64,000 nucleotides of DNA, taken from positions 96,001 to 160,000 of the IMG/VR virus record IMGVR_UViG_3300005330_000014; one strand, given 5' to 3'. The notes under the pieces are model-generated. The model made no database searches. It was given only the letters and a program-made list of their open reading frames with translations, and had not been told where the DNA came from. The stretch is from a virus (taxonomy: Duplodnaviria > Caudoviricetes). Made by a program: the position numbers and the translations under genes. Below, piece by piece: positions 3,002 through 64,000 of the stretch (positions are counted from its first letter, which is position 1; every line of letters starts with the position of its first letter).

Positions 3002-4075
3002 TTAAATTTTATTAATTTCTTGGAAATACCAAATTCTAGCTTTTTTTGCAATCTCGCCACCAACATCTTTTTTATTTAATCCTGACGCTTCTAGTTCATC
3101 ATTGCATTCTTTAAGGATATCATTGGCTATAAATCTTAAAAAGTCTCCCATGCAAGTTTGTGGTGCGGCTTTATTATATAGATTGTTTTCTTTTAGATAG
3201 TTAAATCCTTGAGTCAATCTTTCAATATTAACATTCTTGTCTACAAATCCTTCAATTGTTTTAGCTTTTTCAATATCTACTTTAGCTAAAGTTTTTACAT
3301 GTGAACCAGCATGTTCTTGGCCCTTAACTTTAAACCAAAATTTAGTATTGCCAAAATCTTCCCCAGCAGCTTGCCAAACAATGCCCTCTCCAATTCCACT
3401 AACACCTAACGTTAAACCAAATGGAGATTCTTTCTCTACTTCTAAAGTATAGTTATTGATTAAATCCAGTGATTCCGCCGGGCGTTCAAAATCAATTTCA
3501 ATATCCCAGCGTTTCCCTTGATAAATACTGAAAATTCTATGGTTATTCCAATGAGATTCTAAATATGTTTTATCAAACTGAGAAAAATCCGCCCATTCGC
3601 GGGCGTTTTCATCATTTTCATCATAAATAACTAGGGCCGCGAAAATAGCCCAAAATTTATCTACTTCACTAATAGCAACTTTATTTTGAATTCCTTTCCC
3701 GGCCCATTCGCCATAAATTACCACAATATAGCTAGAATGATTGTCTTGATCAAATGCCATGTATAATTCATTAACTACTTCGAGCGGCAAATTATTAATA
3801 AATTGAGCAAAACCATAATTATCATCGCCCGGCTGAATAATCCTTTCGCGAGATTGACAATAAAATGATCTATCAGATTTAATCACAACTGAACAATTAG
3901 AACCATGAAGCTTTTCGGTCCCAAAATATTTCAGTTTAGGTAATACAGCCGCACGATTCATAATCGGCTGTTGATCCGCATCCAATCCCTGAAATTGTGC
4001 TTTCCATTGCACATTCCGCGCGGCATTTCTAAATTGTTCAATGCTAGGGAATTTATGTAAAGTAAAACTATTCAT
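3002..4075 (-). CDS. RNA ligase, Rnl2 family
   Basis: motif I EKLHGSN (adenylated Lys), IYGEWAG, GEGIVW, FKVKG motifs. Confidence 0.85.
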   Translation of the reverse strand: MNSFTLHKFPSIEQFRNAARNVQWKAQFQGLDADQQPIMNRAAVLPKLKYFGTEKLHGSNCSVVIKSDRSFYCQSRERIIQPGDDNYGFAQFINNLPLEVVNELYMAFDQDNHSSYIVVIYGEWAGKGIQNKVAISEVDKFWAIFAALVIYDENDENAREWADFSQFDKTYLESHWNNHRIFSIYQGKRWDIEIDFERPAESLDLINNYTLEVEKESPFGLTLGVSGIGEGIVWQAAGEDFGNTKFWFKVKGQEHAGSHVKTLAKVDIEKAKTIEGFVDKNVNIERLTQGFNYLKENNLYNKAAPQTCMGDFLRFIANDILKECNDELEASGLNKKDVGGEIAKKARIWYFQEINKI

Positions 4076-4119
4076 TATTTTTTAGTTTGGTTTAATTAAT
4101 TCAATAATTTAATATGTAA

Positions 4120-4506
4120 TTAAAGTAACACTCCTTGTTTAATTTTCGGCTTCAAGGTAAACATATCGGTTAATGGATGATTGTGAGCTTTTGGTTCTCT
4201 GGAGTATCCGCAATAACTTATTTTAAATTCTTCCAGCACCGACTTAATTTCTTCTACTTGTGCAGGCGTGGCATTAAAACTATGACCTATAGATTGGTTA
4301 CTACTCCCTATTATATAAATAACCCGTGAAAGCTTATCGACTTCCACGGTGCAAGATCGCCAAATTTGCCAACCTTTAGTTGTAGCACATACGCACCCAT
4401 GAGGAATACGATCATCTTGTTTACAAATTTCTAATCTGTATCTCGTATCTCCAACCACAGGAAATATTTTATATTCAAAAACAAATTTAGACATTTGGTT
4501 GTTCAA
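4120..4506 (-). CDS. hypothetical protein with HNHPLTDMF motif
   Basis: 128-aa ORF; motif at 4159-4185. Confidence 0.7.
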   Translation of the reverse strand: MNNQMSKFVFEYKIFPVVGDTRYRLEICKQDDRIPHGCVCATTKGWQIWRSCTVEVDKLSRVIYIIGSSNQSIGHSFNATPAQVEEIKSVLEEFKISYCGYSREPKAHNHPLTDMFTLKPKIKQGVLL

Positions 4507-4521
4507 TCAATTAACTAATGA

Positions 4522-4782
4522 CTAATCATTGTACTCAACTAATTCTCTATCAAATCGGCAAGGATCAGTAGCTAATTCTAATTCTTTAAACCAATTATCA
4601 TTACTAGAATCAGTTAATAATAAATGATCGTTTTGTTCCGGGCGGGAGGCGTAAATAGGATAAGCGCGGGCGGATATATTGCCACAAGGTAATTTAATAA
4701 CACTTAAATTGAATTCCGCGCGGTCGCCACGCATCCGAACGCGACGCGGCTTTTTAAGCAAGAAATCTAGAGTTAAATTCAT
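4522..4782 (-). CDS. hypothetical protein
   Basis: 86-aa ORF in the gene run. Confidence 0.55.
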   Translation of the reverse strand: MNLTLDFLLKKPRRVRMRGDRAEFNLSVIKLPCGNISARAYPIYASRPEQNDHLLLTDSSNDNWFKELELATDPCRFDRELVEYND

Positions 4783-4916
4783 TTATTTTTATTCTTTTTC
4801 TTTAATTCTTTCCACTTCAAATACCAAGCTAATTGCCCGGTTAAGCAGTACATTAATGCGTAAAATAGTTTCATAAATAATTAGTGTATTTCAATTTAAA
4901 TATAATTTAGTTTTGT

Positions 4917-5936: not shown

Positions 5937-5953
5937 ATTTATTATTGAGTTAT

Positions 5954-9187: not shown

Positions 9188-9496
9188 TTAATATTCTTCT
9201 TTTTCGTTCACCCATTTAAAATCCCAAGTATTTATTAAGAAAATGGTAGAGCATTTCTCGCATTTAAGTTTCATCGCAGTGGGACGGATAGAAATAGAAC
9301 AATTGCCGCGCGGCGGCTCCCATTCCCCGTTAGGCACTTTTTCAATTACTAGATGCGCCCCGCCAATATGTTTATTTTGCTTACAACGCCAAATTTTAAT
9401 TAATTTAGGTAAATTTTTAAACCAAAGTAATGATCCAACATACCAAAGACGTAAATTTAGTTCTAGTAACTTTGTTTCAAGTTTAAATTTATTCAT
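9188..9496 (-). CDS. hypothetical protein
   Basis: 102-aa ORF in the gene run, contains CEKC. Confidence 0.5.
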   Translation of the reverse strand: MNKFKLETKLLELNLRLWYVGSLLWFKNLPKLIKIWRCKQNKHIGGAHLVIEKVPNGEWEPPRGNCSISIRPTAMKLKCEKCSTIFLINTWDFKWVNEKEEY

Positions 9497-12909: not shown

Positions 12910-13773
12910 TCAAGCCACTTTAATCACATGAATTTTGTCTTGCGGGTAAGGATAAGGTAATTCTTGGAATGAATTAGTAGTATAAACTTCATCAATTACT
13001 TCAAGTATATCTTTATAACCCTTGGAAAAAATCCCGTGGGTAACATACAAAATAATCCGCCCGGCGTTCTTTTTCTTTAATACTTTTGCTAGTTCGATAA
13101 ACGTCCTAGCCCCGTCAGCAATGTCGTCGAGAATTACAACTGTTTGATAATTCAAATCATCTACATAAACAATTGTTTCAATAATTTTACCCGTTTGTAA
13201 TTCTCTTAACTTATCCGCGCGGATAAAGTGATCATGCCCAAAATGCGCGGCAATATCATGGATTTTTTTATTAGCTCCAACATCAGGAGAAATTAAAAGA
13301 CACTGTTTATTAAGTAAAAGCTTATAAAGTTCGTTTTCACGGTCATAAATTAGATTTTTAAGAATATCCAACCGTTTTACTTCCTTAAGATTATTAATTA
13401 CTGCATTAGTAACTTCCGAGTGGCAATCAAAAGTAGTAACGGACTCAAAGTTTAGAAAGTTTAAGTAATCAGCGAATACTTTTAAACTAAGACTTTCCCC
13501 CGGATTATGAGCTTTATCCTGCCGCCCATAAGGAATATAAGGTAAAATAAGATGAATGGGGACTTTTTTAACTCTTAAAATTGCATCGCGCATTAAAGCC
13601 AATGTAAATAAATCATTAGAATTTTGAATCCGCGCGGTTATATAAACTCCATCACGCCAAAAATAAGTACTTTTAATTGATTCTTCGTTTAATTGAATAC
13701 CAATTTCGCCGCCGGGGAATAACCATTGTTTAAAACCTAACTCTAGTCTTCCATTGTTAGTAGTAATTTTCAT
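12910..13773 (-). CDS. prs: ribose-phosphate pyrophosphokinase-like protein (possibly Adps of NARP1)
   Basis: FPGGEI, PYIPYGRQDK, DCHS, ISPDVGA, VILDDIADGARTF, YVTHGIFS motifs; likely start ATG 13773. Confidence 0.9.
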   Translation of the reverse strand: MKITTNNGRLELGFKQWLFPGGEIGIQLNEESIKSTYFWRDGVYITARIQNSNDLFTLALMRDAILRVKKVPIHLILPYIPYGRQDKAHNPGESLSLKVFADYLNFLNFESVTTFDCHSEVTNAVINNLKEVKRLDILKNLIYDRENELYKLLLNKQCLLISPDVGANKKIHDIAAHFGHDHFIRADKLRELQTGKIIETIVYVDDLNYQTVVILDDIADGARTFIELAKVLKKKNAGRIILYVTHGIFSKGYKDILEVIDEVYTTNSFQELPYPYPQDKIHVIKVA

Positions 13774-13777
13774 ATTA

Positions 13778-13927
13778 TTAATTATTTTCTTTATCAATTA
13801 ACTTTTCAATTATATCCTGCTTTTTATTAGGAATAACTCTATTGGGCGGGATTTTTTGTCCACGCCCTTTGACCCGGCGGATACGTTTAATTGTATCTTT
13901 TCTTTTTTGTTTATCCGCGCGGTTCAT
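13778..13927 (-). CDS. small basic protein (49 aa, not in ORF track)
   Basis: MNRADKQKRKDTIKRIRRVKGRG...DKENN fills the gap exactly. Confidence 0.55.
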   Translation of the reverse strand: MNRADKQKRKDTIKRIRRVKGRGQKIPPNRVIPNKKQDIIEKLIDKENN

Positions 13928-13955
13928 TTATTAGCAATATTTTTGAGCATTTAAA

Positions 13956-14669
13956 TTAAGCAACCATTTGCTTTACTTCTTCCAAAAATCTTTGGCTCAA
14001 TGCGTTAGTTTTATAAATCGCTTCGGGGTGCCATTGAACAAAATTAGCTCTGTGGTTTTCATTTTTAATCCATTCAATAATTTTAGGCAGTTTAAGGTCT
14101 TCTCCTAATAAAGCTGTACCTACAATTTCAACCCCATTAGGTAAATGATGTAACTCGCGTGTTAACGGGCGCAAAATACCCATATGGTGCGCGCTATTTA
14201 CGAAATAGTCTTCATGATCGACTTCCACGTAATGGCAAAATTCAGCTTCATCATCTTCTAGTTTAATCCCGGCCCCGCTAGGAGAATGACAAACCGTACT
14301 ACCGCCATAATTAATATCAGTTAGTGTCAATTTAAGGAAGTGAGAACAATATAATTGGAAATTACGACAAACGCCCGCGATTGGTTTGCCCAATTCAATG
14401 AACTTATTCATTAAGTAAATTTCACGAATGTCACGCTTACGATCAAAATTGTCCATATTTTCACATTTTAATAGTGGGCTGCCGTAAGTAGCGGGAAAAA
14501 TATCTCGTCCACCGCCGCCAAAATAAATATCCGCCCGCTCTGCCCAATAATCTAAATTGGCAGTATCGTCGTGAGTTACATATACATAATTCCAACCGAA
14601 ATACTTTTCAAGCATTTCATGAATATGTTTAGTGAAAATAGATGGACCGGTAGTTAGAGCGAGAGGCAT
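13956..14669 (-). CDS. class I glutamine amidotransferase / peptidase C26 (PuuD-like)
   Basis: GGGRDI, GVCRNFQ (catalytic Cys), VNSAHH, QWHPE (His-x-Glu). Confidence 0.88.
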   Translation of the reverse strand: MPLALTTGPSIFTKHIHEMLEKYFGWNYVYVTHDDTANLDYWAERADIYFGGGGRDIFPATYGSPLLKCENMDNFDRKRDIREIYLMNKFIELGKPIAGVCRNFQLYCSHFLKLTLTDINYGGSTVCHSPSGAGIKLEDDEAEFCHYVEVDHEDYFVNSAHHMGILRPLTRELHHLPNGVEIVGTALLGEDLKLPKIIEWIKNENHRANFVQWHPEAIYKTNALSQRFLEEVKQMVA

Positions 14670-15751: not shown

Positions 15752-16147
15752 TTAGTTGAAATTGATTTCTTGGAACTCCCCATTTTTGTCTGTAGCAAAT
15801 ACTCTTTTAAAGTTTAACGAAGTAATAACACGGGCACAGAACTTGCATGGACTTGAAGTATTAATTTTTTCATTTCTATCTACTCTAACGACAGCCATTG
15901 TATAACCCGTGTAATCTTCTCTACGGCCACGCAATATTGCCATCAATTCAGCATGACAACCGCAATCTTCATAATAATTATATTCTATATTTTTAGGATG
16001 GCTTTGTTTCTTATTATGAGCCAGAGAAATCATTTTCCTCTTATTATAAATTGCGGCTACGTGGAAACAACGGCTATCCCCACGCATTTCGGGAGCTAAA
16101 GCTAATGCAATTTCTTTAAGTTTTTCAAGATTTTTAGGAGAATTCAT
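15752..16147 (-). CDS. zinc-dependent cytidine/dCMP deaminase-like protein
   Basis: HAE and SSPCKFC zinc motifs. Confidence 0.8.
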   Translation of the reverse strand: MNSPKNLEKLKEIALALAPEMRGDSRCFHVAAIYNKRKMISLAHNKKQSHPKNIEYNYYEDCGCHAELMAILRGRREDYTGYTMAVVRVDRNEKINTSSPCKFCARVITSLNFKRVFATDKNGEFQEINFN

Positions 16148-16184: not shown

Positions 16185-17231
16185 ATGATAATATATACCA
16201 AAGAATTAGCAAATCAACTTGTAGAGCTACAGAAAAATGTATCTTTTAAGGAAGCAAGAAAAATTTTAAATATCAGTTACTATCAAGCTAGGAAATTATT
16301 AATAAAATTTGGATTTAAAACCGTTCAAAAAAATAAGCCTTTAATCCCCATTCAAGAAAATTACTTTGAAATTATTGATACCGAAGATAAAGCTTATTTT
16401 TTGGGATTTATAGGGGCAGATGGGTGTATTAATGATAAACACGCTTTATCTATTCACTTACAAAAAGACGATCAGATTATTCTAAAGCAGTTTTTGCATT
16501 ATACAAATAGCCAACATACTATTAAATTCGGAAAAACTAAGAACACAACCAGTTCTTTTCCTGATTTTTTTGAGTGGGCTATGATTTATATCTCTAGGAA
16601 AAATTTCGTACAACATTTATTACAATTGAATATTACCCCTCGTAAGAGTCTCACATTAATTCCTCCGCCAGAAAATAGCATTCCCAATCATTTAATGCAT
16701 CACTTTATAAGAGGTTACTTCGATGGAGATGGCGGGGCTTATTTCAATAGTAACAGTAAAAACATTAAAGGCAAAACTTTATATCAATTTAATGGCTCTT
16801 TCACGGGAACCAAGGAAATGTTAACTTATATTGAGTCGTATTTACATCAACAAGAAATAAAAACTTCTTGGACCAAAAGAATGAAAGATAATTCAAACAA
16901 TTATACTTTATTGATACATGGTAATATACAGGGAACTAAACTATACGAATATATGTATCAAAATCATACAATATGTTTAGACCGTAAATTAATTCTATTT
17001 AAAAAATGTAAAGATATAGCAGAATCAGTTATTAACAATAGAACAAGTAAATATAGATTTATTACAAAATATCCTTCCATTAAGTCTCCTTGGTCTTATC
17101 AATTTAAAATTAATAAAAAGAAATATAGCGGATATGGAGCAACCGAAGAAGAATGCAAAAAGAATCTTAATGCAAAGTATTTGGAAATATCTGGAATAAA
17201 TTTAGGAGAGGGGCTGCGTAGCTTAATTTAA
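16185..17231 (+). mobile_element. free-standing LAGLIDADG homing endonuclease
   Basis: two motifs FLGFIGADG and FIRGYFDGDG; AP2-like C-terminus; only long plus-strand gene in the minus-strand arm. Confidence 0.9.
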
Positions 17232-18022: not shown

Positions 18023-18880
18023 TTATTCTAGTGATTTTTCAAAATCTTCAACTACATGAGCAAATTTATTGAGTATTTTAGTTTGCATTTTAGGTGTAAG
18101 CAAAAAGAACGCGGAACTAAATTGACGATATTCTAAAGTGGTAAATCCTTTAGGTTCCTGCGAGTGATATTTCATTCGATAATCTCCTTTGACTGCAAAT
18201 TTAGTAGTTCTTAATTCCTCTTTTTCAGAAATGCCAGCGGGTAGACTTTCCGGGAAATAAGTATCATAAACTTTATCTAATTCTTTGATCAATTCATTAG
18301 TTTTGTCTGGTGCATAAATCCCTTCAAATATTTTTGAGGCAATTCTGTTGTCGCAAAATTTAATATGAATATGAAAGCCAGCCGAACGGAAAGTTACTTC
18401 CTTATTAGGTTTTTCGTATTTATACTTTGAATCAGGGGTTCTTTTACCCGTATAAGCATTATAAGTAGGCTTTTTACTGGAATAAACATTGCCCGGATCA
18501 ATAAATGAATATTCAGATTTATCTACATAAGGAGTTAATAAAGTTTCATAACCATACAAAGTAGTAAGATAATTACGCACAATTTTCAACCAATGATTTA
18601 GAGTATCTACAGCTAATCCCGATTTCATCGAAGCATGGCAAGCTATTTCTTTGCCAACAATTTCAAAAGCAGTCCCGTCCGCAATAATATTGAAAAGGTT
18701 GTTAGATTGCAGTACAGGATTAATATCCAAATCCATTGGCGCAAAGGGATTACCCTTATTTCCAAGTAACAATTTATCTGTTTGTAGATAATTCGCAATC
18801 AATTTAGTAGCATTGAATATCTGCTTTGGCTTTGAATTTGCCAAAAAGAATTCAATTTCAAATCCGTAGTTTAAGCTCAT
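18023..18880 (-). CDS. phiEco32-like COOH.NH2 ligase type 2 (divergent)
   Basis: YGFEIEF, ADGTAFEI, RSAGFHIHI, GDYRMK, LEYRQFS motifs. Confidence 0.75.
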   Translation of the reverse strand: MSLNYGFEIEFFLANSKPKQIFNATKLIANYLQTDKLLLGNKGNPFAPMDLDINPVLQSNNLFNIIADGTAFEIVGKEIACHASMKSGLAVDTLNHWLKIVRNYLTTLYGYETLLTPYVDKSEYSFIDPGNVYSSKKPTYNAYTGKRTPDSKYKYEKPNKEVTFRSAGFHIHIKFCDNRIASKIFEGIYAPDKTNELIKELDKVYDTYFPESLPAGISEKEELRTTKFAVKGDYRMKYHSQEPKGFTTLEYRQFSSAFFLLTPKMQTKILNKFAHVVEDFEKSLE

Positions 18881-18902: not shown

Positions 18903-19520
18903 TTATTGGACAGTTTCTGTATCTACAGCAGTTTCAGGCGGCTTAATTAGCCATTTAGTTAAAGATAAAGTGTCGGTGGGTTTCTTTTTGAAATAATTAA
19001 CAAAACCTCCAGCCTCCCATCCGCCCACGCCTAACGATTTAACTGTTTGCACAGTATAACCATCCATAAAATGTAGGATTGCCGGAATTACTTGCCGCGC
19101 CAAATCATACGCCTCCAAAGCCGCTACAAAGTTATCATTTGCATTGGCATAATAAACAGCCGCCGCGCGGAGGAATAAAGTAAACATACCCCGACGAACG
19201 GCACTACTCGCCCAAAATGGGGAAATTTCCAAAATAATACAATTTACAACATTCGTATTATAAATAACAATTCTTTCCTCTTCAGGAATATTTAATTTAA
19301 TTTCGCGGTTTCTGAAAAACTTATCGATTTTTTCGATATCAATCCCAGTTTTATTAAATCCAACAAATCTGGTATTTTTATTGAAAGAATAACCAAAACT
19401 TTCCCGGCAAGTAAAACATGCTCCGCCCTGATTTGTTTTAATAGAATAAGTAAAGAAAGCTCCTTGATTATAACCGTATGGAGCCACTGATTTTAAATGT
19501 AACGTTTCTTTGGAAATCAT
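18903..19520 (-). CDS. uncharacterised paralog family member (CRExF family)
   Basis: TCRESF, ISPFW, MFTLFLRAA, FMDGYT. Confidence 0.75.
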   Translation of the reverse strand: MISKETLHLKSVAPYGYNQGAFFTYSIKTNQGGACFTCRESFGYSFNKNTRFVGFNKTGIDIEKIDKFFRNREIKLNIPEEERIVIYNTNVVNCIILEISPFWASSAVRRGMFTLFLRAAAVYYANANDNFVAALEAYDLARQVIPAILHFMDGYTVQTVKSLGVGGWEAGGFVNYFKKKPTDTLSLTKWLIKPPETAVDTETVQ

Positions 19521-20448: not shown

Positions 20449-20925
20449 TTACTTTAATTTGTCCACGCGGATTAATTCGGGATTTTCAAAAATATTCCCG
20501 ACAATCTCTAATCCCATATATTCAACTACCTCTTTCAATATTTCTTTAATTGATTGTTCGGGGTAAATCCCTGTTGCGTCATGTATTTTTTGTTTATAAC
20601 CAATAGCCGCGCGGCCAAGCATCAAACCAAATCCGCAAAAATACTTTTCTCCAGCTCCAAACTCACAACTTACATCGTCAAATTGAACAGGTGTTTTACC
20701 ATTTAAACCAACACCACATTCAGCATTACATTTAAGTAAATCGCCCTCATAAATCTCTTTATTGTTTTTATCTAGTAATCCAGTGAATTGTTGAATTACG
20801 AATTCTTCGTGTTGCTGACCGTTTGTGGTTAGTTGATATAACTCTTGGAAATCCGCAGGAAAGTACATTAACGAATTACCTTCATAATTATCAAAACACC
20901 AAACTCTAAATTTAATTGTTTTCAT
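20449..20925 (-). CDS. YopX family protein
   Basis: IKFRVW, QQFTGLLDKNNKEIYEGD, EIVGNIFENPEL. Confidence 0.85.
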   Translation of the reverse strand: MKTIKFRVWCFDNYEGNSLMYFPADFQELYQLTTNGQQHEEFVIQQFTGLLDKNNKEIYEGDLLKCNAECGVGLNGKTPVQFDDVSCEFGAGEKYFCGFGLMLGRAAIGYKQKIHDATGIYPEQSIKEILKEVVEYMGLEIVGNIFENPELIRVDKLK

Positions 20926-22141: not shown

Positions 22142-22151
22142 AAGGTTTTTA

Positions 22152-22424: not shown

Positions 22425-22624
22425 AGGTAATTTAATTCTTGATAGCAAATTAATTAGTTAAACGAAAAGCCGCCGGGTATGGATATGATTGATAAGAGAG
22501 GGTCAACCATATTACCACGGCCCGGCGGATACTGTCAAGATTTATTTTTTAGAATTTTTCGATTTCTTTTTGGGATTTATTTTACTCGATTAAATCAACG
22601 AACTTCACTCATCTATCTTATTTG

Positions 22625-45768: not shown

Positions 45769-47733
45769 GTGAATATGGTAAAAAACGAAGATTGGCAAAT
45801 TATTTCAGATGAATTTACAAGTAAATATAAAGATAAAAAAGTTCCTTGGGGGTTTGGTGCGCTAGGTTTTATTGTCTACAAGCGTACTTACAGTAGAACA
45901 AAAGAAAGTGGTGAATCCGAAGAATGGCATGAAACCATTCAGCGATGCATTAATGGCGCTCAAAAAATCGGCGCTCAATATTCTAAAGAAGAAGCGGAGA
46001 AACTTTTTGATTATATTTTTAATTTAAAGTGTAATTTTGGTGGCCGAATGTTATGGCAACTAGGAACTACTACGGTAGATAGATTTGGGCTCGCCAGCCT
46101 GCTAAATTGCTGGTTTGTTTCCATGAGAGACATGGAAGATTTTTGTTTCTTATTTGAACATTTAATGTTGGGTGGTGGGGTTGGTTATTCAGTTAAGCGT
46201 GAAGATATTCACGAGTTGCCGCGCATTAAAAAGGGAATTGAAATTAAACATGTTTTAACTAAAGATGCTGATTTTATTGTTCCCGATAGTCGTCAGGGAT
46301 GGGTTCAGTTGCTAAGAAATTTACTTTTAGCTTTTTATAATGGTGGTAAGTCATTTACTTATTCTACAATTCTCATTAGAGGCGCGGGAGAATTTATTCG
46401 TGGATTCGGTGGCACAGCAAGTGGGCCGGGCATCCTAATAGAGGGAATTGATAAAATTGTTAAAATCTTTCAGTCAAGAGAAGGTAAAAAACTACGTTCA
46501 ATTGATGTTTTAGATATTAATAATATTATTGGTTCTATTGTTGTTGCGGGTAACGTTCGTCGCAGTGCTGAAATAGCTATTGGCGACCCTGATGATTATC
46601 TTTATTTAAGAGCTAAAAATTGGTCGCTAGGGAATATTCCTAATTGGCGTAGCATGTCCAATAATTCTATTTATGCTGATAGCTATGATCATATTAGCAG
46701 CGAAGTTTGGGCTACTGGATATGAAGTTAATGAAGTAACTAAATGCGCCAAGGGAGAAGCATATGGTTTTATTAATATGCCTCTTAGTCAAACGTTTGGG
46801 CGACTAGGAGAAGAAAGAAAAGATAATTGTGAAGGTTTTAATCCCTGCGCAGAAATAAGCCTTGCCGATGGCGAAGCCTGTAATCTTTGCGAGATTTATC
46901 TAAACAATATAACTTCTAAAGAAGAATTATTTGAATGCTCTAAATTGCTTTACAAAACCCAAAAATGCATTTGGGATTTACCTGCTCTTTACGAGAAAAC
47001 AAGTAAAATTGTTAAAAAGAATCGTCGTATCGGATTAGGTGTAACTGGTATTTGCCAATCTTTAGATAAATTACCTTGGCTAGACGAATGTTATCAAGAA
47101 TTAAGAAAGTTTGATAAAGAATGGTCTAAAAAGCGCGGATGGCCCGAAAGTATTAAACTAACCACAGTTAAGCCTAGCGGAACATTAAGTTTACTTGCTG
47201 GTTCTGTTCCCGGTGTTCACCCCGGATACGACAAGTTCTATCAAAGAACTATTCGTATGAGTAGTAGCGATAAATTAGTTAATATTTGTCGCAATTTGGG
47301 TTATCATGTAGAATATGCTTTAAATTTTGATAACAGTGAAAATCATGATACTGTAGTTATCTATTTTCCCTGCAAATCCACCGAAAATACTCTGGTAGCC
47401 GCCGATGTTGACGCTATCAAACAATTAGAATTAGTAAAACAATTACAAACAGTTTGGTCGGATAATGCAGTTTCGGTAACGGTTTATTATAAACCAGAAG
47501 AATTGCCCTCCATTAAAGAATGGTTAAAGAATAACTACGAACATAATATTAAATCGGTTAGTTTTTTACTTCATCAAAATCACGGATTTAAGCAAGCTCC
47601 ATACCAGTCTATTACAGAGGAACAATATAATTCTTCTATTAAGAAGATTAAATCCATATCTGAAACCTATGATGTAGGAGCAGGGGATTTAGAAACACAA
47701 GAATGCAGTTCTGGAAGTTGCCCTATAAGGTAA
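45769..47733 (+). CDS. nrdJ: class II (adenosylcobalamin) ribonucleotide reductase, monomeric RTPR type
   Basis: NCWF, GNVRRSAEI, NPCAEI, ACNL, VKPSGTLS, C-terminal ECSSGSCPIR. Confidence 0.95.
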   Translation: MNMVKNEDWQIISDEFTSKYKDKKVPWGFGALGFIVYKRTYSRTKESGESEEWHETIQRCINGAQKIGAQYSKEEAEKLFDYIFNLKCNFGGRMLWQLGTTTVDRFGLASLLNCWFVSMRDMEDFCFLFEHLMLGGGVGYSVKREDIHELPRIKKGIEIKHVLTKDADFIVPDSRQGWVQLLRNLLLAFYNGGKSFTYSTILIRGAGEFIRGFGGTASGPGILIEGIDKIVKIFQSREGKKLRSIDVLDINNIIGSIVVAGNVRRSAEIAIGDPDDYLYLRAKNWSLGNIPNWRSMSNNSIYADSYDHISSEVWATGYEVNEVTKCAKGEAYGFINMPLSQTFGRLGEERKDNCEGFNPCAEISLADGEACNLCEIYLNNITSKEELFECSKLLYKTQKCIWDLPALYEKTSKIVKKNRRIGLGVTGICQSLDKLPWLDECYQELRKFDKEWSKKRGWPESIKLTTVKPSGTLSLLAGSVPGVHPGYDKFYQRTIRMSSSDKLVNICRNLGYHVEYALNFDNSENHDTVVIYFPCKSTENTLVAADVDAIKQLELVKQLQTVWSDNAVSVTVYYKPEELPSIKEWLKNNYEHNIKSVSFLLHQNHGFKQAPYQSITEEQYNSSIKKIKSISETYDVGAGDLETQECSSGSCPIR

Positions 47734-47861
47734 AATTTGAGTTAATAATCTCAATTAGAAATCTTTGGGTAGGCTTGTATTGGGAAACTTGGCCTGATCC
47801 ATATCGTTTAGACGTTTGGTTTTGTATTGGAATTATTGCTTTACACTGTTATACACAGTAA
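47703..47861 (+). CDS. small hypothetical protein (52 aa) overlapping the end of nrdJ
   Basis: MQFWKLP...RNLWVGLYW...CYTQ; open reading frame across an otherwise empty gap. Confidence 0.4.
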   Translation: MQFWKLPYKVKFELIISIRNLWVGLYWETWPDPYRLDVWFCIGIIALHCYTQ

Positions 47862-52715: not shown

Positions 52716-53384
52716 ATGAAGATCGACGCTTTTATTACTTGTGTTGGGGAAAATGCTAGGAAATTTCTAGCTGTTTCTCTCGGCTTTAACAAGAAACTAT
52801 TTGACAATGTTTATGTTATCACGACTGAAAAATCAACTGAAACTCATGAATTGTGCGCCCGGGCCGGAGTAGAATGTGTTACTACTGATTTATTTTACAA
52901 AAATCACGCAGTATTCAATCGCGGGGCTGCCCTTAATGATGTTTTTGATTTAATTAAACCTGCCGATTGGGTTTGTCATTTAGATGCCGACATTATCTTA
53001 CCCTCCACTTTCCTTGAATGGAAAAATAATTATAATGATTCTATTGAATATTTTTGGGGGTGCCGCCGGATTTTTATCCCGGCCATTTATGATTTATCTG
53101 ATTTAATGACTGGAAAAGTAATCGAAGACGTTTTTGAAAAACCTTACGGAATTGGTTATGGGTATATGCAACTTTGGAACGTTAATAGTGAAGTTGTTAA
53201 ATCGGGGGCTAAATATCCTGAAAGTTATGATTCATCTAATTCTGACTGGCAGTGGCGCAACTTTTGGGGCGAAACAATTAACGGAGACAAAGAATATACT
53301 AAAAATTTAAAGGAATTACCAATTAGCTGTTTACATTTAGGGCTGCCCGGCCTTGATAATAACCAAAGTTTTTGGGGAGAATAA
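52716..53384 (+). CDS. glycosyltransferase, GT2-like
   Basis: FNRGAALN, CHLDADIIL, GYMQLW, CLHLG; likely start ATG 52716. Confidence 0.75.
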   Translation: MKIDAFITCVGENARKFLAVSLGFNKKLFDNVYVITTEKSTETHELCARAGVECVTTDLFYKNHAVFNRGAALNDVFDLIKPADWVCHLDADIILPSTFLEWKNNYNDSIEYFWGCRRIFIPAIYDLSDLMTGKVIEDVFEKPYGIGYGYMQLWNVNSEVVKSGAKYPESYDSSNSDWQWRNFWGETINGDKEYTKNLKELPISCLHLGLPGLDNNQSFWGE

Positions 53385-53385
53385 C

Positions 53386-53985
53386 ATGGGAAGTTTATCT
53401 TACTTCAATCTCAATGATTATGTTAATCAGTATAATCTAAATGGATTTCTTGAAACGGGTTTGGGACACGGGCATGGGATTCAATATGCTACTACTTGCA
53501 ACTTTGAAATTTGTTATTCAATTGAAATATCTAAAGAAGTAATTCAACGATATCACAGGATGTATGGTAATAATTCAAAAATTAATATTATACAAGGAAC
53601 TAGCAAATTTGGATTACAGCATGTATTTGAACATGATTCCAATAAACAATATTTAATCTTTTTGGATGCCCATTTCCCGGCGGCTGATTTAGGTTTTGCA
53701 GGTTTTAATGATGAAAAGAATGACTCTCTTAAGTATCCCCTGCTTGACGAATTAAAAATAATTAAAAGCCGCGCGGATAAAGGTTATAAAGACGTTATAA
53801 TTGTCGATGACTTAATGTTTTATTCAAACGAGATTTTCCCAGATTCTCATATTAAAAGCTATTTTAAAATTGAGCCGCCAAAAGACAATAACTGCTTAGA
53901 TAAAATCATGAGTTATTTTGATAAAACTCACAAAGCAGAATTGGTTAAACAGTTTAGTGGTTTTGGGATTTTTACACCTAATTAA
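53386..53985 (+). CDS. class I SAM-dependent methyltransferase-like protein
   Basis: FLETGLGHG, SIEI, IFLDAH, IIVDD. Confidence 0.72.
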   Translation: MGSLSYFNLNDYVNQYNLNGFLETGLGHGHGIQYATTCNFEICYSIEISKEVIQRYHRMYGNNSKINIIQGTSKFGLQHVFEHDSNKQYLIFLDAHFPAADLGFAGFNDEKNDSLKYPLLDELKIIKSRADKGYKDVIIVDDLMFYSNEIFPDSHIKSYFKIEPPKDNNCLDKIMSYFDKTHKAELVKQFSGFGIFTPN

Positions 53986-53986
53986 T

Positions 53987-54802
53987 ATGAAAATAGCAGG
54001 ATGGAATTTCGGATTGTTTGGTGATTTAGTTATGAATACTACATTAGCCAAAACTTTTAAAACTCATAACCCAGATAGTAATTTAATTTTTTGTGTTGGA
54101 CGCAAATATTCTGCAATTTTACCTTTATTTTATAATCATCCTTGCATAGATGGATTTCACGTATGGGAAGGTTGTGATGATTGGCCGACCAATAATGATA
54201 GTAAATATATAGAGTCTGGGCGATTTGATAAAGTATATTCCGCGTGCCCTCAACATAAACGGCAAGATTGGTATAAATACAATCATTATATTGAAGAAGT
54301 GCATGATATGAACGATTTCCCTCCACCTGTCGATATGCAATGTCATTTAGATAAATGGTTTCAAACAGAAGAAAGAAGTCAAAAACTAATAACAACTTCT
54401 TTAGTTTCTGGAAATGATCCGCTTGGGCGCGCACTTGATTCTAATCAAATACTAAGCTTACACAAAGATATTGAAAAGTTAGGATATAAAGTGGTTAGGC
54501 TGGATACCAAACAATGCCCAACATTAGAAAATGATTATCCTGCTTCCAAACTTAGTTTATTAGACGCGGTAAAGTTATTACTAACTTCTAAACTACATTT
54601 AACAGTTGACACTTCTTATTCGTGGATCGGTTCAAGTTATAGTCATCCAGTTTTATCTCTACATGGAATTAATTATCCAGATATGGATATTGAGCATGTG
54701 AAAAGTCACGTTCCCTTTAATCCAAATGCGCGAGCTATAATTTCAAACAGTGTCAAGGAAATAAAAAATCAATCTATTATTGATGTTATCAAATCTTTCT
54801 AA
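53987..54802 (+). CDS. glycosyltransferase, GT9 (heptosyltransferase)-like
   Basis: GLFGDLVM..K..PDS.L, HLTVDTSYSWIG. Confidence 0.75.
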   Translation: MKIAGWNFGLFGDLVMNTTLAKTFKTHNPDSNLIFCVGRKYSAILPLFYNHPCIDGFHVWEGCDDWPTNNDSKYIESGRFDKVYSACPQHKRQDWYKYNHYIEEVHDMNDFPPPVDMQCHLDKWFQTEERSQKLITTSLVSGNDPLGRALDSNQILSLHKDIEKLGYKVVRLDTKQCPTLENDYPASKLSLLDAVKLLLTSKLHLTVDTSYSWIGSSYSHPVLSLHGINYPDMDIEHVKSHVPFNPNARAIISNSVKEIKNQSIIDVIKSF

Positions 54803-57649: not shown

Positions 57650-58399
57650 ATGAAAATAGGAATTATTTTTACAGCGTTCAACTCAGCAGATTTAATCCTT
57701 AAATGCCTAGACCCGTGGATTAAAGTTAAAAACACTTTAAATCATCAGTTTGTTTATAGTTGCGTTTCAGTCCCTTTTGAAAAATTCAATATAGATAAAA
57801 CTGACAATACAGTTGAATTAATTAAAACAACTGGCATCATGGATTTTTTGTTTGCCGATGGACAATTCAAATCTGAAATAGCCGCGCGGGGCATCTGTTT
57901 AGATTATTTAAAAGATAATGGGTGTGATTTTATTTGGCAAGTTGATGCTGACGAATTTTATACAGTAGAAGATATAACAAATATAGTTAATTACATAGAA
58001 AAAGACAAATCTACATTCTGGTGGAAACTTTGTCTTAAAAACTATTTTCAAACAGACAAACAATATTTGGCTGAACCATTTACTCCGGCGCGGATTTTTA
58101 GAGTTAATCAACCTCCTTATAAATTGGGTGATTTCATTCAAGATAATGACATTTCGTTTTTTTATCAACGGGCAGAAATACCTAATTCATTTGTTAAAAG
58201 TAAAGTGATTCCACGCGAAGTAAATTGGACAAAGCACTTAAGTTGGTTAAACGGGTCGCGTAGTCGCGACAAAATTTTTTACCAAAATAAACGCTGGGGT
58301 AAGTCAAGTTATATATATGATGAGGTTACAGAAACGGTAAACTTTAATCCTGACTATTATCCCGGTGGACAATTTCCTGAAGTAATACAAGAAATTTAA
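57650..58399 (+). CDS. glycosyltransferase, GT2-like
   Basis: EIAARG, WQVDADEFY, KHLSW. Confidence 0.78.
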   Translation: MKIGIIFTAFNSADLILKCLDPWIKVKNTLNHQFVYSCVSVPFEKFNIDKTDNTVELIKTTGIMDFLFADGQFKSEIAARGICLDYLKDNGCDFIWQVDADEFYTVEDITNIVNYIEKDKSTFWWKLCLKNYFQTDKQYLAEPFTPARIFRVNQPPYKLGDFIQDNDISFFYQRAEIPNSFVKSKVIPREVNWTKHLSWLNGSRSRDKIFYQNKRWGKSSYIYDEVTETVNFNPDYYPGGQFPEVIQEI

Positions 58400-59409: not shown

Positions 59410-59415
59410 GTTTTT

Positions 59416-60267
59416 ATGAAAGTTTGCATCTTAGGTGGTGGATTTATTGCTAAAAACCTTATCAAATATCTTGAAAAGCAAAAAGATATTAATATCTTAG
59501 CTGTTGGATATGAAGCTGTTAATTCGCACGCTTCAATTAGATTCGACATTAGAAATTCTGACAGTATTGAATTGTGTTTTATAAATGGTCCTTATAATAT
59601 TATTATAAATTGTACGGGTATTTCCAATTTTTCTAGCTGCGAAGATAATAATAATTATTCTTTTGATGTAAATTGTCATGGACCCCTTAATATTTTAGAC
59701 TATATCCATTGTGATTCTCATACCACTCGTTTTATTAACTTAGGAAGCATTCGAGAATTTGATTCTGATTCGTGGTATGCGCGCACAAAAAAAATATCTA
59801 GAGAAATCGTTGGGTATTATCGTGAACAAAAAGGCATGTGGGCCGCGCAATTATATTTACCTAATATAGTAGGAAAAGAACAGGATGCCGCGCGATTTGT
59901 TGTCCCTAAAGTTATTGATTTTGTTGAAAATTTTGCTAAAAATCCGGCGGACTCAAAACTCAAATTAGGGAATCTAGATTCTACACTTAATTTAATTCAT
60001 GTGGATACAGCCTGTGAACTTATCTGGCGCGCGGCTCAATCGCAAACCCCTATAGACTACTTACTTACAGGAGAAAAAATTTTGTTAAAAGATTTTGTAG
60101 TTAAAATATTTCAAAAATTTGGCATACAAGATTGGGAAAATTACGTTGAAATTGACCAGTCATTAGTTCGCCCGAACGATAATCCTTATTATATAGAATT
60201 AGTTAAACATGCTTTAAAAAGTAATGATACGGTTGATGACATTATTAATAAGCTATGTCAGGCTTAA
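59416..60267 (+). CDS. NAD-dependent epimerase/dehydratase, GDP-mannose 4,6-dehydratase-like (divergent)
   Basis: ILGGGFIA Rossmann start, YARTK, LKLGNLDS, DYLL.TG, YVEID..LVRP. Confidence 0.75.
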   Translation: MKVCILGGGFIAKNLIKYLEKQKDINILAVGYEAVNSHASIRFDIRNSDSIELCFINGPYNIIINCTGISNFSSCEDNNNYSFDVNCHGPLNILDYIHCDSHTTRFINLGSIREFDSDSWYARTKKISREIVGYYREQKGMWAAQLYLPNIVGKEQDAARFVVPKVIDFVENFAKNPADSKLKLGNLDSTLNLIHVDTACELIWRAAQSQTPIDYLLTGEKILLKDFVVKIFQKFGIQDWENYVEIDQSLVRPNDNPYYIELVKHALKSNDTVDDIINKLCQA

Positions 60268-61022
60268 TCGGAGTTGAATGGCGCGGTGGCAACAAATTAG
60301 GAGATAGACTTTGCCGAATTTCTCTTTTCGAGAATTATTACAAGAATACAGGCGATAAATTAATTGATTTGATTGGCATGGAATATACTAAGTATAATCC
60401 TTATGTTTTACAAATCTCTGATATTCACCCCAATACTTTATCTAGAATTGAAAAGCGGTGCTTATGGAATTATCCGCCGCGTGCCGTTCCTTTTGATTCG
60501 TTTAAAACGATGGCGCACGAAGTTTGTGCCCGATGGGATTTGCCAGTTTGTTATTTAAATAGGTCGCGCTTATATAAATACGAAGATTCGATTAAGTTTC
60601 CTAGAAGTTTAGTTATCAACACTACGGGGCGTGGACACGGCGCAATTCCCCTACATGTTATTAAACATATTCGAGAAGCTTATAAAAATTATACAATTAT
60701 ACAAATTGGTGGTTTGACTGATATTGACGCGGGCGCGGATTTAGATCGGCGCGGCTGTGATTTTTGGGAATCTGCTAAATACATGAGTGAATGTGAAATC
60801 GCTATCATTCCAGATAGTTTTTGTTATTGGCTTTCCAAGTGTTATAGAATGCATCGTAAAGTTATACTAACTAACTTATCCGCCGAGAATTGTGAAAAGT
60901 TCTTACCGCGCGGCTATCATATTGATAATTGGGAACAAGATTGGTGGCTAGAGTTAGATGCTGAATTTTACAATATTTACGAACAAGACTTTGGCATAAC
61001 TAAATCCTATTTATCAATCTAA
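60255..61022 (+). CDS. glycosyltransferase, GT9-like
   Basis: KLGDRLC, IIQIGG, IIPDS..YW. Confidence 0.6.
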   Translation: MSGLIGVEWRGGNKLGDRLCRISLFENYYKNTGDKLIDLIGMEYTKYNPYVLQISDIHPNTLSRIEKRCLWNYPPRAVPFDSFKTMAHEVCARWDLPVCYLNRSRLYKYEDSIKFPRSLVINTTGRGHGAIPLHVIKHIREAYKNYTIIQIGGLTDIDAGADLDRRGCDFWESAKYMSECEIAIIPDSFCYWLSKCYRMHRKVILTNLSAENCEKFLPRGYHIDNWEQDWWLELDAEFYNIYEQDFGITKSYLSI

Positions 61023-61375: not shown

Positions 61376-61379
61376 AGTA

Positions 61380-61820: not shown

Positions 61821-62123
61821 ATGAGTGAAGAACAAGGCAGTAGTTTCACTATTTTTATAGGTGGGAAGCCGCCCGATCCTGTGCCTGCCGAAAATGAACC
61901 TAATAATATTGGGGAAATCAACCGACAAGCACAAGCTGGTAATATTGACTTTGCTAAATGGTGGACATGCAAATGGAAATCGGGTATCGAAAAAAGAGTT
62001 ATAAAAAGTTGCTGCGGTCGTAGTGAAGAAGTTCTAACTATCGCATGTAACAAACTCGAAATAACTATGTTGACCCCCTTGATATGTGCAAGGTGCTCTC
62101 ACCATTCTCCAAAAGACATTTAA
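61821..62123 (+). CDS. Cys-rich hypothetical protein
   Basis: CKW, SCCG, C..., CARC. Confidence 0.55.
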   Translation: MSEEQGSSFTIFIGGKPPDPVPAENEPNNIGEINRQAQAGNIDFAKWWTCKWKSGIEKRVIKSCCGRSEEVLTIACNKLEITMLTPLICARCSHHSPKDI

Positions 62124-62131
62124 TAACAACT

Positions 62132-63268
62132 ATGAGTAAAGCTAAAGAAAAAAATAAAGAGGAAGAAACAGACGAAAAAGTTTTAACACCACAGCAGCAA
62201 GCCGCCGCGTTATTTAAAGGTAATAAAACAGATATTTACAACCACGAAGCAGATCATCATTCTCAAACTCCATCTTCTAGTTTGATTATGAATTCTATTA
62301 TGGGTGGTGGATTGCCTTCGGGCGCGTCCCGTGCAATCGGCAATAGTTCCGGCGGCAAATCTTCTTGTTCTCTGGATTTTATGTTTCATTTCTTGCAGCA
62401 AGTTACTAAACGTAAAGGCGTTTACGCCGACGCGGAAGGAAAACTAAACAAAAATATTAGAGAACGTTCTGGTGTTAAATTCGTGACTGATCCCGAGTTA
62501 TGGGAAGATGGAACTTGTTTAATTGTTCAAACTAATGTGTTTGAATTTTTATTCTCCTTTATGGGGGATTTAATGAGAAACAATCCAACTGATACTAAAT
62601 ATTTCTTTATTGTTGATTCAATTGATATGTTAGCGCGGCGCGATGACTTGCTTAAAAATATGGAAGATTCAGCCAAGGTTGCGGGCGGAGCAGTTTTAAC
62701 TTCAGTATTTTTAAAACAAACTTCAGCGGCGATGGCAAAGCGCGGACATTATTGCGTATTTATTTCTCAAGTTAGAGATGCGGTAAAAATTGACCCGCGC
62801 CAAAAAACGGATACTAATAAACAAGGAAAAGCGTCGGGCGGACATGCGTTAGAACATGCCCCTGAATGGGTATTAGATTTTCAACCTAGATATCAGGATG
62901 ATATAATCAGGGAAGATGACAATGACAAGAAATCTAAACCATTAGGACATTATTGCAGAATTAACATTGTTAAATCGAATAATGAGACTTACGGACAAGA
63001 GATTAGATATCCAATTAGATATGGGCGCACAGGCGGCACTTCTGTTTGGGTGGAAAAAGAGATTGCAGACTTTGCTTTAATGTGGAATTTCGCCAAAAAA
63101 GAGAAAAGCTCTTATTACTTTTCAGACGAATTAAAACAAGAATTTGCCGATAACAATATAGAAATCCCTGAAAAATTCGTTGGAATTAATAAGTATATGC
63201 AATTTTTTGAAGACCGCGCGGACGTAACCAGTTTTCTTTACAAAAAATTCACCAAACTCTTAGGGTAA
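62132..63268 (+). CDS. recA: RecA/UvsX-like recombinase
   Basis: GGGLP, Walker A GNSSGGKS, DAEG, IVDSI, FISQVR, GGHALEH; likely start ATG 62132. Confidence 0.88.
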   Translation: MSKAKEKNKEEETDEKVLTPQQQAAALFKGNKTDIYNHEADHHSQTPSSSLIMNSIMGGGLPSGASRAIGNSSGGKSSCSLDFMFHFLQQVTKRKGVYADAEGKLNKNIRERSGVKFVTDPELWEDGTCLIVQTNVFEFLFSFMGDLMRNNPTDTKYFFIVDSIDMLARRDDLLKNMEDSAKVAGGAVLTSVFLKQTSAAMAKRGHYCVFISQVRDAVKIDPRQKTDTNKQGKASGGHALEHAPEWVLDFQPRYQDDIIREDDNDKKSKPLGHYCRINIVKSNNETYGQEIRYPIRYGRTGGTSVWVEKEIADFALMWNFAKKEKSSYYFSDELKQEFADNNIEIPEKFVGINKYMQFFEDRADVTSFLYKKFTKLLG

Positions 63269-63269
63269 A

Positions 63270-63683
63270 ATGAAATTCTATTCAATTCACGGCAAATTAG
63301 TCACTGTTAATGTGTCTAAATATCGCGTGGATTGGCAAAGAAAAGTCAGCGCGCCACAATTTGCCGCAAAATCCTTCTTATTTCCGTACTGGAGAAATGA
63401 TATAGTATTGGAGGAATTAAGGATTCCCGGCAGTTTGTTTAGAATTGATTTGGTTAATTTAAGTAAAAAAGTAATAATTGAAATTAGTCCCCGCTCCTTA
63501 CACGTTAATTATAACAAATTTATGCATAGAAACCGGGCTGGCTATCTCAAGAAAATTAAAAGTGACGCAGAAAAACTAAAATGGGCAGAAAAATCAGGGT
63601 TTAAATTTGTAGAATTCTACGATGAAGACCTTGCCAATCTTTCTCCAGAGTATTTAAAAGAAAAATTTGATTTAGATTTATGA
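63270..63683 (+). CDS. putative PD-(D/E)XK / DUF559-like endonuclease
   Basis: EE.RIP..RIDL...IIEI...H pattern. Confidence 0.6.
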   Translation: MKFYSIHGKLVTVNVSKYRVDWQRKVSAPQFAAKSFLFPYWRNDIVLEELRIPGSLFRIDLVNLSKKVIIEISPRSLHVNYNKFMHRNRAGYLKKIKSDAEKLKWAEKSGFKFVEFYDEDLANLSPEYLKEKFDLDL

Positions 63684-63895
63684 CTAATGAAGAATTAAGG
63701 GAATTGACGGGTAAAGTTGAGATAGAAGATATGTTAACTCATTTTCTATATCTGTTAGTCCGCGATTATTTACCTGCCGGAATAATTGAAGAGTTGGTCA
63801 GAAAAACGGAAAAAAATAAAATTCTATATACTAATGGATATTTAGCTAAATATGCAGAATTGCTATCCAATAGATTAAAAGATAAAAATGTGTAA
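63680..63895 (+). CDS. hypothetical protein
   Basis: 71-aa ORF with ATGA overlap. Confidence 0.6.
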   Translation: MTNEELRELTGKVEIEDMLTHFLYLLVRDYLPAGIIEELVRKTEKNKILYTNGYLAKYAELLSNRLKDKNV

Positions 63896-63926
63896 ATATT
63901 GATAGCTTTTTAAAATTTACGAAATT

Positions 63927-64000
63927 ATGCCCAAAAAATTTAAAGACCCGGCGGATCAACCATTCCAATTCCCCCAAGCATTGCTAAAGTCCATCGACGA
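63927..64000 (+). CDS. 5-prime part of a gene running off the window
   Basis: MPKKFKDPADQPFQFPQALLKSID, open to the end of the window. Confidence 0.5.
   Translation, partial: MPKKFKDPADQPFQFPQALLKSID

Follow-up and report, generated by a model that had tools for sequence, protein, structure and literature searches.

Why would an AT-rich virus genome carry so many copies of short words built only from G and C? The question was raised by a 64,000-nucleotide stretch of DNA (the window), bases 96,001–160,000 of one virus record of 208,233 bp (IMG/VR IMGVR_UViG_3300005330_000014) from an uncultured phage with 34.8% GC. An earlier note had reported 14 positions of the palindrome CCGCGCGG and seven of CCCGGCGGAT or its reverse complement in this window, and all of them proved exact; the note had assumed 30% GC and the window measures 32–38%, which left its conclusion unaffected. 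Our tentative answer is that the two words may be the commonest members of a habit, peculiar to one phage clade, of gathering G/C into runs of 7–8 bases, rather than special sites.

Within the window, CCGCGCGG occurred 14 times against 0.19 expected from dinucleotide-preserving shuffles (maximum 2), and CCCGGCGGAT occurred seven times on both strands together against 0.01, with none of 100 shuffles reaching the observed count for either word. Genome-wide, over all 208,233 bp, there were 57 copies of CCGCGCGG and 12 of CCCGGCGGAT. Genes were called by a simple method combining open reading frames (ORFs) with a codon score, which yielded 316 genes at 86% coverage; the caller is crude and missed small GC-richer genes at genome 47–72 kb, so counts described here as non-coding are upper bounds. 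The called coding sequences contained 40 copies of CCGCGCGG, compared with 3.3 ± 1.6 after synonymous shuffling within genes (z ~23), 0.7 after codon permutation and 15.3 under a dicodon Markov model. The corresponding figures were 77 against 6.1, 1.6 and 27.8 for the non-palindromic word CGCGCGGC, and 9 against 0.4, 0.1 and 1.6 for CCCGGCGGAT. Enrichment thus persisted under the codon-, amino-acid- and dicodon-preserving nulls in which, as the earlier note had argued, a protein-level artefact would make it disappear, and an amino-acid, codon or dicodon artefact was ruled out. The genic CCGCGCGG sites were distributed 7/14/19 over the three frames, encoding A-A-R, P-R-G or R-A according to frame, and a further 17 lay outside called genes. 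Since the sites occupy all frames, occur outside genes and survive protein- and codon-preserving nulls, the excess is a DNA-level signal and not one of amino-acid or codon usage. Across nulls, in all frames and in intergenic DNA, the octamer palindrome was strongly over-represented (57 copies against 3–12), as expected of a highly iterated palindrome of the HIP1 type.

Both words proved to be peaks within a general excess of pure G/C runs. Missed by the earlier note, CGCGCGGC and its complement GCCGCGCG were commoner still, with 106 copies, placing them in the top ten among the genome's 8-mers. The tight core CGCGCGG, with C (106) or A (61) as the next base, occupied 141 distinct sites genome-wide, 57 of which are the palindrome CCGCGCGG, carrying the 7-mer on both strands. 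The flanks of CCGCGCGG and CCCGGCGGAT were random, with no conserved sequence, so the sites are not copies of a repeat element; flank complementarity was 3.8/12 compared with 3.3 at random positions, so that longer hairpins with the palindrome at their apex were ruled out. A dispersed repeat or mobile GC cluster of the MITE, REP or yeast mitochondrial type was rejected because the flanks are random and the sites arise by substitutions in aligned codons.

Pure G/C runs of at least 7 bases numbered 835 genome-wide, compared with 256 expected under a first-order strong/weak model. Coding DNA had 3.99/kb and the remaining DNA 4.12/kb, their spacing was Poisson-like (coefficient of variation 1.05), and their vocabulary was wide, with 72 distinct 8-base runs. 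Relative to the synonymous shuffle, every GC-only 6-mer was 2–5.4 times as frequent as expected and the twenty leading 8-mers 7–15 times, so that CCGCGCGG is not an outlier in ratio. Mixed dinucleotide steps were all under-represented (AC/GT 0.76).

The G/C fraction at fourfold-degenerate sites rose from 0.16 with A/T neighbours to 0.76 with at least three G/C on each side. A logistic model gave neighbour coefficients of 0.86/0.79 at ±1, falling smoothly to 0.29/0.25 at ±4 and to about zero beyond ±5, and the effect had the same shape in non-coding DNA. The two sides combined roughly multiplicatively, with odds of 0.19 for flanks of (0,0), 0.56–0.67 when one side had three and 3.2 for (3,3). 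Fourfold sites showed no G/C skew in any run-length class, and CGCGCGG was found 69 times sense and 80 times antisense, indicating a property of the duplex rather than of transcription or translation. The same lack of skew left a test for strand-asymmetric deamination uninformative, and stoperator-type repressor sites, which are asymmetric and oriented with transcription, were rejected on the sense and antisense counts. Of the strand and position bias that the earlier note had proposed to look for, the result was strand symmetry and random spacing, with a local density peak at genome 47–72 kb.

We compared 160 loci, using the UvsX-like protein as the probe. Among these, 76 AT-rich loci (32–38% GC, mostly marine T4-like) had a median of 0.8 long runs/kb, with 1.1 for the run index and 0.15 for nearest-neighbour coupling, compared with 4.0 long runs/kb, 3.3 and 0.50 in this phage. 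UvsX relatives at 73–81% identity were present in the protein database; searches of IMG/VR and JGI with UvsX returned no DNA closer than 64% identity (locus L081), and single-protein scans of viral and genome contigs for close relatives found none. L081, at 31.8% GC, had 3.05 runs/kb and an index of 3.8, shared the top 6-mer CCGCGC, carried two CCGCGCGG copies in 12 kb and had the same sites purged, and the habit was present in weaker form in L003 and L005. In the GC-richer kin (L001, L002, L004 and L082-84; 42–53% GC) the purge was present and the run index reached only 1.3–1.8; neighbour coupling was present in L082-84, and the GC-rich kin had the weakest coupling, 0.10.

The record itself is that of a densely coded T4-like phage encoding a class II ribonucleotide reductase (RNR), a UvsX-like recombinase, an RNA ligase and NAPRTase. 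Its closest named relative was a Maribacter phage, on one gene only, and a DNA search of the phage collection with this genome gave zero matches. Because Shine-Dalgarno leaders are absent before the phage genes and because of the Maribacter-phage match, the hosts are probably Bacteroidota. In five named soil Bacteroidota, CCGCGCGG occurred at 0–6 per Mb compared with 274 per Mb in the phage, and among sampled genomes of this probable host phylum neither CGCGCGGC (301 genomes) nor the 10-bp palindrome GCCGCGCGGC (401 genomes) was ever clearly above its reversed control; a host-wide word was accordingly not found in either set. As the habit is shared by L081 and absent from the AT-rich controls, and the words are not enriched in the sampled Bacteroidota, it is a property of a small phage clade and not of the hosts sampled.

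Codon alignments with L081 revealed that most runs were not shared, and the two CCGCGCGG sites alignable to this one relative, at 64% protein identity, were both absent there. Run-bearing codons often stood opposite A/T-rich codons in L081, as in M-L-A-R-R-D-D compared with M-M-I-K-R-D-D and D-R-A-D compared with E-K-K-D, and where the runs occur K has been replaced by R and I by A. In a 31-sequence alignment K was widespread and ancestral and R was derived in the closest subclade. These two sets of alignments indicated that several substitutions, some of which change amino acids, build a run where it stands, and that runs turn over. Across three kin pairs (two near-identical, one 80%-identical), G/C to A/T differences were 0.56–0.65 times as frequent where at least four G/C flank the site, whereas C to G swaps were commoner there, indicating that G/C-ness rather than base identity is kept.

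A further feature of the genome concerned the words that are missing. Of the 32 6-bp palindromes with at least four G/C, 18 had zero copies in 208 kb. Among the eight GC-only ones the survivors were CGCGCG (168), GCGCGC (66) and CCCGGG (27), and CCGCGG, CGGCCG, GCCGGC, GGCGCC and GGGCCC were at zero compared with Markov expectations of 13–74. TTCGAA, AGATCT, GGATCC, TCCGGA and CCWGG were also at zero genome-wide, and GATC, GTAC and GGCC were strongly depleted. Twelve sites were at zero in the window, namely the five GC-only palindromes together with TTCGAA, AGATCT, GGATCC, TCCGGA, CTGCAG, GAGCTC and GTCGAC. CGCG was the sole over-represented GC-only 4-bp palindrome (Markov observed/expected ratio 1.44). 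The purge was common to the whole family of soil relatives, whose GC-rich 6-bp palindromes had observed/expected ratios of 0.28–0.68 compared with ~1.0 in marine T4-like controls; palindromic 4–6-mers far below expectation and a deficit common to kin are what restriction avoidance predicts. AGATCC/GGATCT and other non-palindromic words, many of mixed composition, were likewise at zero genome-wide.

The account we lean towards, with real reservations, is that the habit was written by a clade-specific, neighbour-dependent substitution bias and filtered by restriction avoidance. Substitution bias is favoured because the vocabulary is broad, density is equal in coding and non-coding DNA, spacing is random, the strands are symmetric, the neighbour effect declines smoothly over ±4 bases, and runs turn over while G/C-ness is kept. 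The bias would arise in the phage's own replication, recombination or repair, such that a G/C pair flanked by G/C would be lost to A/T more slowly, or a change from A/T to G/C would be fixed more readily there, whether by mutation or through a bias in how heteroduplex is repaired. With AT pressure strong, G/C might then survive and accrete only in runs; the purge of palindromic restriction sites would act as a second filter that prunes the GC-only words, and the CpG-dense words that avoid purged sites, CCGCGCGG and CGCGCGGC, would end on top. The earlier note had offered selected binding sites or a context in which C and G are shielded. Its shielding alternative fits the graded neighbour effect best. 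The DNA-level excess, its range and symmetry, the purge, the clade limits and the turnover of sites, amino-acid changes included, were observed here; a substitution bias rather than selection as the cause, and a responsible enzyme, are inferred.

Several observations weigh against this account. Other AT-rich phage loci (n = 76) are without the run habit, so generic DNA chemistry alone is not its cause. The chance that a run continues climbed from 0.35 to reach 0.79 at the step from 7 to 8 bases and fell to 0.45 at the step from 8 to 9, in non-coding DNA as well, and this drop after 8 bases resembles a preferred length and not simple saturation. We also kept the real positions and lengths of the runs and redrew their contents from Markov chains of order 0–4, optionally rejecting the five forbidden palindromes. 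Under these nulls, with or without rejection, CCGCGCGG was expected 4–12 times (25 at order 5) compared with 57 observed, CGCGCGGC 8–21 times (42 at order 5) compared with 106, and GCCGCGCGGC 0.2–0.8 times (3.3 at order 5) compared with 17. CGCGCGG(C/A) and CCCGGCGG thus stood 4–6 times above what runs, CpG content and forbidden palindromes predict, and the three largest positive residuals were CCGCGCGG, CCCGGCGG and CGCGCGGC, both of the earlier note's words being included. Allowed GC-only words gained ~1.9-fold per CpG and only 1.3–1.5-fold per GpC, despite similar stacking energies. Word count correlated with nearest-neighbour stability (Spearman −0.5 to −0.68), but words of equal stability differed 6–15-fold, for example CGCGCGGC with 106 copies and CGCGGCGC with 7, and duplex stability was therefore rejected as the sole cause. 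Finally, CGCGCGG reached its highest density, ~2/kb or roughly one site for each gene, in a block of small genes at genome 47–72 kb. The residual word preference, the preferred length of 8, the excess of CpG over GpC and the 47–72 kb concentration are left unexplained by a substitution bias, and they keep alive a dedicated reader or a writer resembling that proposed for HIP1 of cyanobacteria. The block at genome 47,000–72,000, which lies before the window, holds ~62 small minus-strand ORFs, tRNAs for Leu-TAA, Cys-GCA and Lys-TTT and long ORF-poor gaps, and its region includes GC-richer genes such as an AAA-ATPase-like gene of 49% GC at 46,795–47,772.

A reader of this kind is the strongest rival, possible though on balance unlikely. 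The words would be selected sites recognized by a phage-encoded protein and would serve as 'self' labels, in private Chi or nuclease control, or as nucleoid or packaging sites; GC-only words are rarest in an AT-rich host, and the palindrome offers CGCGCGG in both orientations. Besides the word-specific 4–6-fold excess beyond the runs, the preferred run length of 8 and the roughly one site per small gene at genome 47–72 kb, this rival draws on the form of the variants: 142 of the 295 one-off variants of CGCGCGGC have their change at one of the outer positions, 1 and 8, so that GCGCGG stands out as a tight core, and the base at −1 is hardly ever A (4 of 106 CGCGCGGC copies). Also in its favour are the count of GCCGCGCGGC (17 compared with 0.3–3.3), the rarity of the words in the five soil Bacteroidota (at most 6 per Mb, compared with 274 per Mb in the phage) and the amino-acid-changing substitutions that accompany sites. 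However, orientation is unbiased (CGCGCGG 43 plus/41 minus) and sense roughly equals antisense, the sites are not positionally conserved relative to L081, their spacing is random, and the other enriched GC-only words would require a second explanation. Against the earlier note's Chi-like version stand this lack of orientation bias and the lack of a matching host word in the sampled Bacteroidota. A wider conjecture, which we regard as doubtful, is that AT-rich phages of several families keep lineage-specific GC-only 'self' words, read by a phage nuclease, recombinase or helicase such that phage DNA is spared or recombined and host DNA degraded, which would amount to a phage-owned Chi analogue.

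The genes for DNA modification and repair bear on the next rival and on the earlier note's proposal that a 'glycosyltransferase/methylase island' makes a base modification. That proposal found no support: ten ORFs searched at window 14–37.5 kb gave no match to a glycosyltransferase or methylase, and matched instead a glutamine amidotransferase (GATase), peptidase C26 and a phiEco32-type COOH-NH2 ligase. A search of the whole genome found no C5-cytosine methylase, Vsr, MutS, UDG, ThyA or ThyX. The sole DNA methylase, of the N6/N4 family with an SPPY motif, lies outside the window at genome 166,658–167,893; SPPY is the form typical of N4-cytosine enzymes, and the best named relatives of this protein are CcrM-type adenine methylases. 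The syntenic place in L081 (8607–10279) holds a Mom-family gene and short C5- and N6-methylase-like ORFs. The locus is a variable modification island and an unlikely cause of the habit, because its contents differ in L081, which shares that habit. The complete purge of many restriction sites also argues against globally hypermodified DNA.

A HIP1-like writer, which we consider improbable, would consist of a methyltransferase that marks an inner stretch such as CGCG or CGCGCG, with short-patch mismatch repair, guided by the methylation, completing near-cognate words. The phage does have a hyper-abundant GC-rich palindrome of 8 bp that reaches about one copy per gene in one region, the over-represented CGCG (1.44), the SPPY methylase and one-base deviations concentrated at outer positions, as reported for HIP1 (PMC4390886). 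Yet the genome lacks a C5-methylase, Vsr and MutS, the methylase locus is variable and L081, sharing the habit, has Mom-like and other methylase-like ORFs, the methylase resembles CcrM-type adenine enzymes best, CCGCGG is fully purged although it contains CGCG, and many other enriched words would go unexplained.

Still less probable is that the runs are a by-product of restriction avoidance, in which purging sites of mixed composition would push the genome towards A/T-only and G/C-only tracts and leave uncut GC-only words as survivors. The purge is indeed very complete and family-wide (0.28–0.68 compared with ~1.0 in marine controls), mixed dinucleotide steps are all low (AC/GT 0.76) and many non-palindromic mixed words stand at zero. 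But one change destroys a site and does not need a pure run of 7–8 bases, GC-richer kin are purged and yet have run indices of only 1.3–1.8, and forbidding the five GC-only palindromes lifts the expectation for CCGCGCGG only to 6–12. Least credible of all, and largely refuted, is that the words are relics of a GC-richer ancestry combined with protein needs for Arg, Ala, Gly and Pro codons and no special process, since, although the wider family is GC-richer (42–53% in L001, L002, L004 and L082-84) and amino-acid order alone raises the CCGCGCGG expectation ~5-fold (0.7 to 3.3), the protein-preserving synonymous shuffle gives 3.3 against 40, run density is equal in non-coding DNA, some runs are derived (R on ancestral K) and the GC-rich kin have the weakest coupling (0.10).

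The copies of both words in the window are collected in Table 1, together with a gene that may be relevant to AT pressure.

Table 1 Positions of the two words and of context features, counted from the first base of the window
Feature	Position	Strand	Context
CCGCGCGG	4016–4023		in RNA-ligase-like gene 3002–4075, minus; read GCC GCG CGG (A-A-R)
CCGCGCGG	4716–4723		small minus-strand ORF; read C CGC GCG G (R-A)
CCGCGCGG	9306–9313		minus-strand ORF 9188–9496; read CCG CGC GG (P-R-G)
CCGCGCGG	13215–13222		minus-strand ORF 12910–13797; R-A frame
CCGCGCGG	13630–13637		minus-strand ORF 12910–13797; A-R, frame differs from the 13215 copy
CCCGGCGGAT	13873–13882	+	intergenic gap 13798–13955
CCGCGCGG	13915–13922		intergenic gap 13798–13955
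CCGCGCGG	19163–19170		minus-strand ORF 18903–19520; R-A frame
CCGCGCGG extended to GCCGCGCGGC	20607–20614		minus-strand ORF 20449–20925
CCCGGCGGAT	22521–22530	+	between ORFs 21326–22192 and 22625–23038
CCCGGCGGAT	40593–40602	+	plus-strand ORF 39946–40821
CCGCGCGG	40763–40770		plus-strand ORF 39946–40821; A-A-R
CCCGGCGGAT	41049–41058	+	plus-strand ORF 40858–41181
CCGCGCGG extended to GCCGCGCGGC	42006–42013		plus-strand ORF 41864–42955
ComEB-like dCMP deaminase gene	43958–44452	+	possible source of a dTTP-rich pool and AT pressure; context only
CCCGGCGGAT	44647–44656	-	inside plus-strand ORF 44465–44821
CCCGGCGGAT	45255–45264	-	inside plus-strand ORF 45202–45651
CCGCGCGG	53769–53776		overlap zone of ORFs 53353–53985 and 53918–54802; no gene assigned by caller
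CCGCGCGG	57882–57889		plus-strand ORF 57650–58399; A-A-R
CCGCGCGG	60906–60913		plus-strand ORF 60255–61022; P-R-G
CCGCGCGG	63214–63221		RecA/UvsX-like gene 62084–63268; D-R-A-D (L081: E-K-K-D, site not conserved)
CCCGGCGGAT	63947–63956	+	small plus-strand ORF crossing the window end (genome 159,927–160,217); L081 orthologue without the site
Background habit	1–64000		235 pure G/C runs of at least 7 bases, 28 CGCGCGG sites

The window encodes two CDA-fold deaminases (15752–16147, minus strand; 43958–44452, plus strand), and a dCMP deaminase in a genome without MutS or UDG is compatible with self-made AT pressure and no mismatch repair of its own. The minus-strand deaminase is a divergent protein of 131 amino acids whose gene directly adjoins a LAGLIDADG homing-endonuclease gene (16185–17231). 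The latter, at 28.7% GC, has almost no runs, and the genes at 16185–17231, 18023–18880 and 32057–33133 have few or no long G/C runs compared with the genome mean of 4/kb; such run-poor genes are candidates for recent, unameliorated acquisition. Genes at 13956–14669, 29410–30372 and 36629–37492 resemble a peptidase C26/GATase, a phiEco32-type COOH-NH2 ligase and a class-II amidotransferase, together an amide-ligase system. On the A/T side of the composition, homopolymers were strongly avoided in coding DNA relative to the synonymous shuffle (AAAAAAA/TTTTTTT 84 against 228; the 8-mer 16 against 80), and the AT-rich words TAACTAAA, AACTAA(A), TTAGTT and the palindrome TAATATTA (86 against 51) were over-represented genome-wide. 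These AT-rich words are common in the A/T-rich leaders, devoid of Shine-Dalgarno sequences, that precede start codons, and may be a promoter or leader element.

If a substitution bias is the cause, this clade would offer a clean natural case of strong, long-range (~4 bases each way) neighbour-dependent evolution that alters amino acids, one open to dissection using the polymerase and nucleotide-pool enzymes that the phage itself encodes. Should a protein read the words, they would represent the first phage-owned HIP1- or Chi-like system. In both cases, compositional habits of this kind distort the prediction of hosts from k-mers, inference from codon usage and the discovery of motifs in viral metagenomics.

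Neither CCGCGCGG nor GC-only runs in phages were described in the literature searched. The closest known analogue is HIP1 (GCGATCGC), which together with alternate highly iterated palindromes is known from cyanobacteria (Elhai 2015, PMC4390886; Xu et al. 2018, PMC5861425). Elhai proposed that methylation-guided repair converts near-cognate sequences to the full HIP1 word (PMC4390886). The two cases are alike in that a GC-rich 8-bp palindrome is in huge excess whatever the frame and outside coding DNA too, in places with about one copy per gene, and that its function is unsettled; the concentration of one-base variants at outer positions (here 142 of 295) is a further likeness. They differ in that the present palindrome belongs to a phage instead of a chromosome and is one peak within a wide range of GC-only words, that the search of the genome gave no C5-methylase or Vsr-type partner, that no periodicity was seen, and that the nearest available relative (L081) does not have the sites at conserved positions.

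Chi, DNA uptake sequences and KOPS-type words resemble the phage words as short, frame-independent words found about once per 1–2 kb, and Chi in AT-rich Firmicutes is also GC-rich. Unlike Chi, the phage words have no orientation skew (non-palindromic CGCGCGG 43 plus/41 minus, largest local skew 23:11), and the word is not hyper-abundant in any of the 301–401 sampled Bacteroidota genomes. Restriction-site avoidance in phages has its counterpart in the 18 GC-rich 6-bp palindromes at zero, and it shapes which GC-only words can exist; it accounts for the missing words but not for the 3-fold excess of runs or the ~5-fold extra CGCGCGG(C/A).

Short GC-only islands scattered across a very AT-rich genome, some of them within genes, are also known as the GC clusters of yeast mitochondria. 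Those clusters are mobile elements of 30–50 bp with family-specific sequence, whereas the phage runs are 7–11 bases long, lack conserved flanks and arise where they stand, by substitution. A process of substitution that resembles the bias favoured here is neighbour-dependent mutation under imbalanced deoxynucleoside triphosphate (dNTP) pools, the next-nucleotide effect (Kumar et al. 2011, PMC3045583; Watt et al. 2016, PMC4770217). There, too, error fixation depends on a few bases beside the mismatch, and the phage encodes its own dCMP deaminase and RNR and no MutS; any link between dNTP-pool mutation and the phage runs would be a plausibility argument only. The difference lies in the strength of one-sided shielding, as G/C on one side raises the odds more than 2-fold, which exceeds the pure next-nucleotide model and led us to reject it in that form, and in the greater weight of CpG over GpC.

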